14,173 nucleotides of DNA from Candidatus Thorarchaeota archaeon. GTDB taxonomy: Archaea; Asgardarchaeota; Thorarchaeia; Thorarchaeales; Thorarchaeaceae. Numbering within the stretch: the first letter of the stretch is position 1; each line of letters starts with the position of its first letter. The notes beneath the pieces are model-generated. The model searched no databases. It was not told where the DNA came from and saw only the letters and a program-made list of their open reading frames with translations. This document shows positions 62 through 648 of this stretch, piece after piece. A program made the position numbers and the translations under genes. The stretch is taken from contig PRDI01000062.1 of the NCBI GenBank assembly GCA_003345595.1, forward strand, positions 1 through 14,173. Direction: 5' to 3'.

Positions 62-78
62 AGTCACATCATGTGACT
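62..78. promoter_or_regulatory. Perfect 8-1-8 palindrome, candidate transcription-factor operator
   Basis: AGTCACAT-C-ATGTGACT, ending about 30 nt upstream of the TATA box at 109-116. Confidence 0.5.
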
Positions 79-108
79 CTGTGCAGTGACCCCTGAAAGT
101 GGCTTCGC

Positions 109-116
109 TATATATA
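109..116 (+). promoter_or_regulatory. Archaeal TATA box for the micro-ORF operon
   Basis: TATATATA 32 nt upstream of ATG 149, which is the usual archaeal spacing. The motif is symmetric, so it could also serve a divergent gene. Confidence 0.6.
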
Positions 117-148
117 CTCAGTCTGAGCAGCATTACTCGTGAACTAAT

Positions 149-262
149 ATGGCACACGAAGCAAACACTCGAAACACATCTGTTGGGAAGAAGAACACCG
201 GCATCGCAAAGGCCCAGAGCACCGATGCAATCGCCTACGCCTACGCCACTGTTGTGAGGTGA
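149..262 (+). CDS. Micro-protein 1, 37 aa (MAHEANTRNTSVGKKNTGIAKAQSTDAIAYAYATVVR)
   Basis: Hand-translated ATG..TGA, downstream of a TATA box. Shares the MAH start, S-x-D/E-AIA and C-terminal VR with the next ORF. Confidence 0.65.
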   Translation: MAHEANTRNTSVGKKNTGIAKAQSTDAIAYAYATVVR

Positions 263-267
263 ACAAA

Positions 268-375
268 ATGGCTCACATGAAGACTGACATCAATGTTAGG
301 AAGGCCGCAGTCCGCAGAGTCCAGATTTCCGCCGAGGCAATCGCCCTCGTCCGCTTCATAGGGCTTGTAAGGTGA
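268..375 (+). CDS. Micro-protein 2, 35 aa (MAHMKTDINVRKAAVRRVQISAEAIALVRFIGLVR)
   Basis: Shine-Dalgarno (SD) GAGGTGA at 256-262 overlaps the previous stop, lies 5 nt before the ATG and is complementary to this genome's 16S 3' end (TCACCTC). Paralogous to ORF 149-262. Confidence 0.65.
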   Translation: MAHMKTDINVRKAAVRRVQISAEAIALVRFIGLVR

Positions 376-381
376 AACTAA

Positions 382-504
382 ATGAACGTTGATTCTGCCA
401 AGCGACTTAGAGTCCGTCCTACCAGCCTCAATGTGCGGAATCCCAATTCATCCAAGACTCATGTGTTGACTGTGGCTGAGGTTTTCGCGTGGGAGGCAAC
501 GTAA
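382..504 (+). CDS. Micro-protein 3, 40 aa (MNVDSAKRLRVRPTSLNVRNPNSSKTHVLTVAEVFAWEAT)
   Basis: SD AGGTGA at 370-375 overlaps the previous stop, 6 nt before the ATG. NVR and AEVFA echo NVR and AEAIA in ORF 2. Confidence 0.55.
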   Translation: MNVDSAKRLRVRPTSLNVRNPNSSKTHVLTVAEVFAWEAT

Positions 505-520
505 TACCTCCCCTCTGTTT
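491..520 (+). terminator. Terminator-like hairpin with pyrimidine tract
   Basis: GGGAGG (491-496) pairs with CCTCCC (507-512) across the ORF3 stop codon, followed by CTCTGTTT. Confidence 0.35.
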
Positions 521-648
521 ATGCTGAATATGCACGACCCTGAGTTCCGTACTGCTTCTTCTGACTTTGTGATCTTCCATACTTCTGTGTGATTCCGAGG
601 TAATGCATGCCATTGGCTGGCCACTGTCCAGAATCTGCGCATAGAGAG

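Follow-up and report, generated by a model that had tools for sequence, protein, structure and literature searches.

The phenol-soluble modulin operons of staphylococci (psm-alpha 1-4 and psm-beta) belong to the core genome and encode tandem paralogous peptides of 20-44 amino acids (aa), which are expressed from a promoter to which a dedicated regulator binds. Multi-peptide leaderless bacteriocins (viz. aureocin A70, garvicin KS, and enterocin L50) consist of two to four similar cationic peptides of ~30-44 aa that are encoded back to back and carry no leader. The alpha/beta-type small acid-soluble spore proteins (SASPs) of Bacillus and Clostridium are DNA-binding proteins of 60-75 aa whose genes are monocistronic and dependent on sigma-G, and the AcrZ, KdpF, MgtS, MntS, and SgrT proteins of enterobacteria are 30-50 aa proteins that bind and modulate the pumps with which they are co-encoded or co-regulated. 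In the present work, we describe a cassette of three micro-protein genes, referred to as A, B, and C, which occupies positions 62-522 of contig PRDI01000062.1 from a Candidatus Thorarchaeota archaeon. The window that was analysed is this entire contig of 14,173 bp (C62), which is part of an 83%-complete archaeal metagenome-assembled genome and carries an archaeal 16S rRNA gene. The cassette represents a three-gene micro-protein operon family that is so far undescribed in the literature we found, and no publication on the A/B micro-protein family was recovered by our literature search.

Our comparisons, which are based on sequence, indicate that A, B, and C are conserved protein-coding genes under purifying selection and that the cassette family is limited, among the genomes searched, to a single family of Thorarchaeota (Asgard archaea), in which it occurs in 1-8 copies per genome. 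They also indicate that the cassettes share a palindrome with the gene for a beta-solenoid protein, with operons for pumps of the major facilitator superfamily (MFS), and with an S41 peptidase gene, and that together these constitute a lineage-specific, multi-copy regulon. The reading that we favor, with a probability of roughly 0.45, is that the products would be inducible, unmodified cytoplasmic micro-proteins that act by stoichiometric binding under the control of this shared operator regulon.

The modulins and the cassette are alike in that both comprise tandem paralogous peptides with neither a leader nor modification enzymes. However, the modulins are strongly amphipathic, membrane-active, and exported by an ATP-binding cassette (ABC) transporter, whereas the cassette peptides are hydrophilic and weakly amphipathic, bear no sequence similarity to the modulins, and have no ABC exporter that we could see. 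The leaderless bacteriocins likewise share with the cassette an arrangement of adjacent genes for similar cationic peptides without a leader, but they are hydrophobic, Trp-rich, patchily distributed between strains, and accompanied by ABC transporter and immunity genes, while the cassette proteins are hydrophilic, occur almost universally within one archaeal family, and are encoded by units that mostly stand alone. In common with the cassette, the SASPs form a dispersed multigene family of small proteins expressed from one type of promoter, and their bulk production and stoichiometric binding may, by analogy, apply to the cassette proteins as well; there is no homology between the two, and the SASPs are longer, monocistronic, and sigma-G dependent. 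The AcrZ-type proteins are of the same 30-50 aa scale and are similarly encoded or co-regulated with pumps, but they are mostly single hydrophobic helices encoded in single copy, in contrast to the basic, soluble, multi-copy proteins of the cassette, which are mostly not found beside a pump.

The evidence that A, B, and C are genes comes from their conservation in related genomes. With A as the query, a search of 41 related genomes revealed intact frames of 33-39 codons in 18 of the 24 that belong to the same family. A profile constructed from 19 A sequences matched 68 of the 76 genomes of the window's Thorarchaeota family (1-8 matches per genome), again in intact frames of 33-39 codons without internal stops, and it had no match among 224 genomes from 29 other Asgard families. 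C was detected in 49 of the 76 family genomes and was not found in the other 27. In the loci that were fetched, a B-like open reading frame (ORF) lies 5-8 nucleotides (nt) after A in nearly all cases and a C-like ORF often follows. A search of the A profile against 1.84 billion representative proteins yielded only 38 matches at E <=0.001, nearly all of them 29-46 aa long; the few family members on record are named "hypothetical protein", and one of these is from Thorarchaeota. Positions 40-560 of the window were found in DNA contigs of wetland metagenomes only, with no RNA run listed among the matches, and a scan of viral contigs found no relatives of the cassette.

Selection at the protein level is evident from the pattern of substitution. 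The pairwise ratios of nonsynonymous to synonymous substitution (dN/dS) are ~0.40 for A, ~0.48 for B, and ~0.57 for C, and third-position changes are in excess. The conserved Ser is encoded by TCN and AGY codons alike, the invariant Thr and Ala are each encoded by 3 or 4 codons, and the conserved Tyr is also encoded by several (the range across the three residues is 2-4). A pure nucleotide-level repeat or RNA is ruled out by these dN/dS values together with the synonymous turnover at conserved residues. That the three frames are chance ORFs lying within a conserved non-coding RNA or repeat is a possibility that we regard as negligible: a search of Rfam gave no match in positions 1-640 of the window, although none would be expected for a new RNA, and this idea is at odds with the codon periodicity, the synonymous turnover, and the conservation of frame, length, start, and stop over hundreds of copies with no internal stops. 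The initial annotation of this DNA had reported three back-to-back ORFs at these positions. They are present as described, with starts spaced 119 and 114 nt apart, and the set is far beyond chance because the same arrangement, lengths, and junctions recur at dozens of loci across many genera; both the profile search for frame conservation and the comparison of codons (dN/dS 0.4-0.6, a switch between Ser codon families) point to coding rather than a mere nucleotide repeat.

The proteins A and B are paralogues, and their profiles align by hhalign with a probability of 97% (E 1e-10). They have in common a Met-Ala start, a basic and polar N-terminal half, and, ahead of a C-terminal Arg, the motif S-T-x-A-[IL]-A-x-x-[YF]; across the A/B family, in which lengths range from 27 to 38 aa, the motif takes the form S-T-x-A-[ILV]-[AT]-x-x-[YF], and all of these traits are seen in A and B of the window. 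The window's A scores 8.8e-19 against the A-family profile, and its B aligns with 17 B sequences, differing from the B-family motif (S-T-[KR]-A-I-A-x-x-Y-F-R-R) by a longer, genus-specific C-terminus. C has the family consensus E-V-L-A-L-E-A-T at its acidic C-terminus, and a comparison of C with A or B by hhalign gave a probability of <1%, i.e., no detectable relationship. Hence, the proposal in the initial annotation of three tandem paralogues holds for A and B only, and the resemblances between the second and third ORFs that it had taken as signs of kinship ("NVR" and "AE-x-x-A") are coincidental, since C is not a detectable paralogue of the other two.

The family-average net charge is ~+4.5 for A, ~+6 for B, and ~0 for C (~-2 at its C-terminus), the overall grand average of hydropathy (GRAVY) is ~-0.6, Cys makes up a fraction of 0.001-0.006, and Trp is ~0 in A and B. 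No signal peptide was found in A, B, or C, and no membrane segment, the maximal Kyte-Doolittle mean over 15 residues being 0.2-0.3; the peptides are only weakly amphipathic, with a C-terminal helical hydrophobic moment of 0.2-0.4. The AlphaFold2 model of A consists of a single helix spanning residues 8-36, with a predicted local distance difference test (pLDDT) score of 64. The suggestion that these proteins are membrane-active is thus a poor fit, given their GRAVY and the lack of any 15-residue window that is hydrophobic enough. Searches of Pfam and NCBIfam up to E 10 returned nothing for A, B, or C except one irrelevant weak repeat match, and when A was used in a feature search of the ESM Atlas, the scores reached only 0.80-0.81, against unnamed clusters, which is chance level. 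A prediction of an A+B+C complex, made with alignments and without controls, gave an ipSAE of 0.02, which is evidence neither way.

These properties also bear on the suggestion that the cassette encodes precursors of ribosomally synthesised and post-translationally modified peptides (RiPPs), which enzymes encoded elsewhere in the genome would modify. Their small size, their multiple diversified copies, and the conserved Ser-Thr and Tyr are features that such precursors could display. However, Cys is essentially absent, and the proteins lack a conserved leader and a variable core, the pattern being reversed: the C-terminal part is conserved and the N-terminal part is variable. The window begins 61 nt before the palindrome, and its left flank was therefore read from an orthologous contig (L021), in which genes for DNA polymerase X, URO-D, HDAC, and a methyltransferase are found. 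No radical SAM enzyme, YcaO, lanthipeptide synthetase, or ABC exporter is present in the window, in this flank, or in the other cassette contexts that were inspected, and no immunity gene is present in the window or the flank. The observation in the initial annotation that no modifying enzyme is visible in the window is upheld and extends to this orthologous left flank; its suggestion of RiPP-like precursors has nothing in its favor with regard to enzymes, Cys content, or the conserved C-terminus, and we consider it very improbable.

A/B and the C-terminus of C are opposite in charge, which raises the further possibility of a toxin-antitoxin-like pair, in which the basic A and B would arrest growth and the acidic end of C would neutralise them; the small size, multiple copies, and dispersal of the cassettes would suit such a role. 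It is nevertheless quite improbable, as many cassettes are without C (cf. the 27 genomes noted above), A and B contain no membrane segment and in this differ from type I toxins, which are single hydrophobic transmembrane helices, and the loci show synteny and vertical inheritance rather than mobility, no viral relatives having been detected.

The organization of positions 62-522, whose features are listed in Table 1, indicates that this segment is one self-contained transcription unit consisting of an operator, a TATA promoter, a short leader, three translationally coupled genes, and a terminator region. Transcription would start, by inference, within the initiator region. The intergenic gaps are 5 and 6 nt, and the junction near-repeats, TATA box, and palindrome of the initial annotation were all found. 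The hairpin that it placed at the 3' end exists as well (positions 491-496 pair with 507-512), although its folding is no better than that of shuffled sequence (z 0.43) and it is common only to members of the same genus, other genera having T-rich tracts directly after the stop of C; the segment is probably the terminator region.

Table 1. Features of the micro-protein cassette of the window. BRE, transcription factor B (TFB) recognition element.
Feature	Position	Strand	Description
Palindrome, operator-like	62-78		Perfect, 17 bp; core GTCACA-N3-TGTGAC
GTGACCC, repeat of operator half-site	86-92	+	Column block at least 80% conserved in the promoter alignment
GTGGCTTCGC block at the BRE position	99-108	+	Abuts the TATA box on its upstream side; half-site-like; not the consensus purine-rich BRE; conserved in cassette promoters
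TATA box	109-116	+	Core invariant in the promoter alignment
Initiator region and short 5' leader (TCTGAGCAG ... GTGA) ahead of the start of A	122-142	+	Conserved; blocks TGAG..TA and CTTGTGAA conserved in the promoter alignment
Gene A	149-262	+	37 aa; basic micro-protein; C-terminal motif Q-S-T-D-A-[IL]-x-Y-A-[YF] ... R
Shine-Dalgarno site of B, GAGGTGA	256-262	+	Formed by the last codons and stop of A
Gene B	268-375	+	35 aa (38 if the GTG at 259 is used); paralogue of A, more basic
Shine-Dalgarno site of C, AGGTGA	370-375	+	Formed by the last codon and stop of B
Gene C	382-504	+	40 aa; third micro-protein, unrelated to A/B; variable polar N-terminal part, acidic C-terminal motif
3' end: 6-bp GC hairpin over the stop of C, then a short T-containing tract	491-522	+	Putative terminator region

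A trait of the family that is also seen in the window is that the Shine-Dalgarno site of the next cistron lies inside the terminal Arg codon(s) and stop of the preceding gene, followed by a gap of 5-7 nt. The 3' end of the window's own 16S rRNA (...GGATCACCTCCT) is complementary to both of the sites in Table 1, in agreement with the initial annotation, which had recognised the AGG TGA ends of the first two ORFs as doubling as ribosome-binding sites. Across genera, A ends in ...AGG TGA, followed after 5-7 nt by the ATG of B, with AGG as the final Arg codon in 26 of 27 A genes, and B ends in ...AGG AGA TAG, with the next ATG 6 nt away. As each downstream ribosome-binding site is made from the preceding terminal codons, coupled translation may be argued. 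What occupies the third place differs among cassettes: besides C, an unrelated acidic peptide rich in Ser, a further B, or a large gene may be encoded there.

The embedded Shine-Dalgarno sites, the occurrence of the same promoter and micro-ORF module ahead of different downstream genes, and the stronger conservation of the promoter than of the ORFs could be taken to mean that the ORFs are cis-acting leader cistrons, which would form a portable module with the promoter and set downstream expression by being translated, the peptides themselves mattering little. We judge this to be improbable. The terminal Arg residues are conserved also at the protein level, some copies having CGN codons that abolish the Shine-Dalgarno site, and the terminal Arg-Arg of B is retained with such codons in a cassette in which no downstream cistron was detected. 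At motifs far from the junctions, the amino acids have been retained while codons changed synonymously, the switch of Ser codon family being one such change, and many cassettes, that of the window included, are closed by a terminator beyond which nothing follows.

Conservation is higher in the ~100 nt upstream of A than in the genes themselves; this stretch contains, in order, the palindrome, GTGACCC, the GTGGCTTCGC block, the TATA box, and the initiator and leader. Ahead of A, the palindrome is retained in 27 distinct cassettes that represent many genera, with the TATA box 32 nt after it in every cassette that was checked. Positions 62-116 of the window carry the full set of elements of the family promoter (GTMACA-N3-TGTGAC, GTGACCC, the GTGGCTYCGC block, and TATA) and match the promoter profile with an nhmmer E of 1.2e-23. 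In five genomes the palindrome pattern gave 34 strand hits compared with 6 for a reversed control pattern, and nearly all of the hits in these genomes lie ahead of micro-ORF cassettes. We infer that the palindrome is a putative operator at which one sequence-specific, dimeric transcription factor would switch the whole regulon, by either activation or repression. The description of this locus as a regulated, duplicated, and diversified small-protein cassette is accordingly well founded in its own promoter and operator, its Shine-Dalgarno coupling, and its coding capacity, with the duplication confined to A and B.

A comparable promoter is known from the TFB-RF1 regulon of Pyrococcus furiosus, in which a transporter operon is driven by a promoter with a palindrome ahead of a BRE that departs from the consensus and of a TATA box (PMC5937170). 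The layout of palindrome, non-consensus BRE, and TATA box is the same in the cassette, but the TFB-RF1 site reads TCTGAA-N-TTCAGA as opposed to GTCACA-N3-TGTGAC in the cassette, and the TFB-RF1 motif was rejected as the cassette operator due to this difference in sequence (PMC5937170). A 176-aa gene divergent from a type-2 cassette was also considered as the regulator and dropped, as it has no sequence match in the PDB and is confined to orthologous loci of the SMC context. No regulator gene, such as the cytoplasmic receptor-regulator of RRNPP-type signalling cassettes, adjoins the cassette in the window, where the nearest helix-turn-helix (HTH) gene (1725-2030, -) lies beyond tRNA and hydrolase genes. 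This gene encodes a 101-aa IclR-type winged-helix protein in an operon with an amino-acid kinase gene; its synteny with the cassette was seen in six loci, all of them orthologous, and it shows no sign of being the regulator.

Besides the cassettes, the same class of palindrome precedes a gene for a 412-aa protein whose orthologues are 44-59% identical and whose copy in the window's genome is located at C123:12654-13889. In a search of 41 family genomes, this protein was matched in 37 of the 40 other genomes, by a single match in all but one, and the palindrome (with at most 2 mismatches) was found 61-98 nt before its start in 27 of 28 evaluable loci from many genera; a related GTGGTTCCGC block precedes its TATA box. 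The AlphaFold2 model of the protein is a long, regular beta-solenoid with a pLDDT of 95. No significant relative was found by sequence, Pfam giving only a sub-threshold match to the FapA beta-solenoid; a Foldseek search of the PDB with the model returned nothing significant, and VIA-align retrieved only generic beta-helices (Z up to 19). As the structure searches yield only such generic matches, a bactofilin identity is not confirmed by Pfam, Foldseek, or VIA-align.

Transporter and peptidase genes are also associated with the module. In four loci an EntS/Mef-like MFS pump begins 6 nt after B, in three genera a second MFS family lies behind micro-ORFs and the same promoter, and in one genome an S41 peptidase is found in this position. 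The orthologue of the second MFS family in the window's genome (C58:29707-28316) has only a decayed copy of the cassette promoter (C58:30416-30500, -; nhmmer E 7e-8), ~700 nt upstream, with no recognisable micro-ORF behind it. At another locus (L061:5944-6136; G012:C4), the same operator and promoter precede a 33-aa ORF that is unrelated to A, B, or C, has a Tyr/Trp-rich end, and is located upstream of a second-family MFS pump; the module can thus carry other micro-ORFs.

The linkage to pumps and a peptidase favors the main rival to cytoplasmic binding, namely that A, B, and C are exported without a leader and, by analogy with the modulins, the leaderless bacteriocins, or peptide quorum signals, act outside the cell as signals, surfactant-like peptides, or antimicrobials, the MFS pumps serving for export and the S41 peptidase for trimming. 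Tandem paralogous cationic peptides of 27-40 aa without a leader would be in keeping with this, as would the pump 6 nt after B in one class of loci, the second MFS family and the peptidase behind micro-ORFs with the same promoter, and the conserved C-termini, which a peptidase that recognises C-termini could read. However, no transporter, immunity gene, or protease is situated near the cassette of the window or near most of the others; the peptides, which are hydrophilic, poor in Trp, and only weakly amphipathic, differ in this from known leaderless bacteriocins and modulins; peptides of 4 kDa are unusual for MFS pumps, which normally transport small molecules; the near-universal and syntenic occurrence within one archaeal family differs from the patchy distribution of bacteriocins; and no peptide family of Pfam or NCBIfam is matched. 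On balance, export is a possible but unlikely explanation, and the signalling or antimicrobial peptides proposed in the initial annotation, while conceivable, are not the best fit.

Cytoplasmic binding, by comparison, is supported by the charge and GRAVY of the proteins, by the near absence of Cys, by the lack of a membrane segment or signal peptide, and by the absence of exporter, immunity, and modifying genes at the locus and in its orthologous flank. It is also supported by gene dosage, five near-identical copies of ~410 bp being present in one genome. According to this proposal, a dimeric transcription factor bound at the palindrome would switch the entire regulon, and upon induction the micro-proteins would be produced in bulk, remain unmodified, and stay in the cytoplasm; such bulk production would explain the amplified copy number. 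They would then act by stoichiometric binding to a polyanion (nucleic acid or ribosome) or, in the manner of small accessory subunits, to co-regulated envelope proteins. Their basic charge suggests polyanionic or acidic partners, for which the co-regulated pumps, the beta-solenoid protein, and C are candidates, and C itself may form pairs with the basic A and B or act as a buffer to them.

Several considerations weigh against cytoplasmic binding. The helix of A is predicted with only moderate confidence, as its pLDDT indicates. The linkage of micro-ORFs to efflux-type pumps and to a peptidase of the C-terminal-processing type would fit exported and processed peptides as well. Transporter accessory subunits are usually hydrophobic, whereas A, B, and C are not. 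Finally, the binding targets are candidates, and the regulator is a postulated one.

The cassettes sit in at least three unrelated syntenic contexts. In one genome (G012; L056-L060), five dispersed copies are 88-98% identical and share exactly ~410 bp, extending from the palindrome to ~15 nt past the stop of C, while their flanks are unrelated and no terminal repeats were seen. As the shared segment runs from operator to terminator between unrelated flanks, the duplicated unit is the complete transcription unit. These five copies may have spread by a transposition-like process or by gene conversion. In a test of concerted evolution, a paralogue from the same genome was closer than any copy from another genus in 16 of 26 cases, which is suggestive only. 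In a genus that is mostly without matches to the A profile, the operator was found before a divergent A-like gene that a C-like gene directly follows, B being absent (L046; G022:C2, ~75264).

The window's genome has two more diverged copies, each located behind a different inverted-repeat promoter. One comprises an A-like gene (C8:12505-12612, -), and the other a pair (C129:54383-54122, -) in which a C-like gene of 46 aa comes after an A/B-like gene of 35 aa; the promoter of this pair has the inverted repeat TTGGTCAC ... GTGACCAA just upstream of the TATA box. A second promoter type, with TGGTCAC / GTGACCA inverted repeats and a shared AGCATATCAAGTGACCAG, was observed at C8:12505-12700 (-), where it precedes the lone A-like gene, and at C58:30040-30140 (-), just upstream of the MFS pump gene on that contig; it is possibly a form of the switch that is particular to the genus.

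Downstream of the cassette, the window carries genes for an intron-bearing tRNA-Leu(CAA), an alpha/beta hydrolase, the small IclR-type HTH protein, the amino-acid kinase, a class I tRNA synthetase, OsmC, and an M1 peptidase. The tRNA gene (649-760, -) is convergent with the cassette and contains a 12-nt intron in the anticodon loop; it was found by Rfam and by ARAGORN with the intron option but missed by ARAGORN with default settings, and a tRNA is likewise present at this place in orthologous loci, both within the genus and in another genus.

No part of archaeal genomes is charted as poorly as their small proteins, and no known organisms are more closely related to eukaryotes than the Asgard archaea. 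The present work adds a whole conserved, multi-copy family of micro-proteins that exists in databases only as scattered "hypothetical proteins", and whose genes are systematically missed by gene callers in Thorarchaeota genomes. The defined promoter, operator, and regulon, together with a cassette of only ~460 bp, provide useful handles for experiment. More speculatively, and with a rather low probability, the multiplying cassettes of ~410 bp, the possibly filament-forming beta-solenoid protein, the efflux-type pumps, and the peptidase may constitute, as one regulon, an inducible programme of the Thorarchaeota that has no described counterpart, in which the basic peptides would be either intercellular signals or weapons, or else caps or cofactors of beta-solenoid assembly. 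The nature of the co-regulated genes (viz. the beta-solenoid protein, the two efflux-type pumps, and the S41 peptidase) would point to a response of the envelope or to stress.

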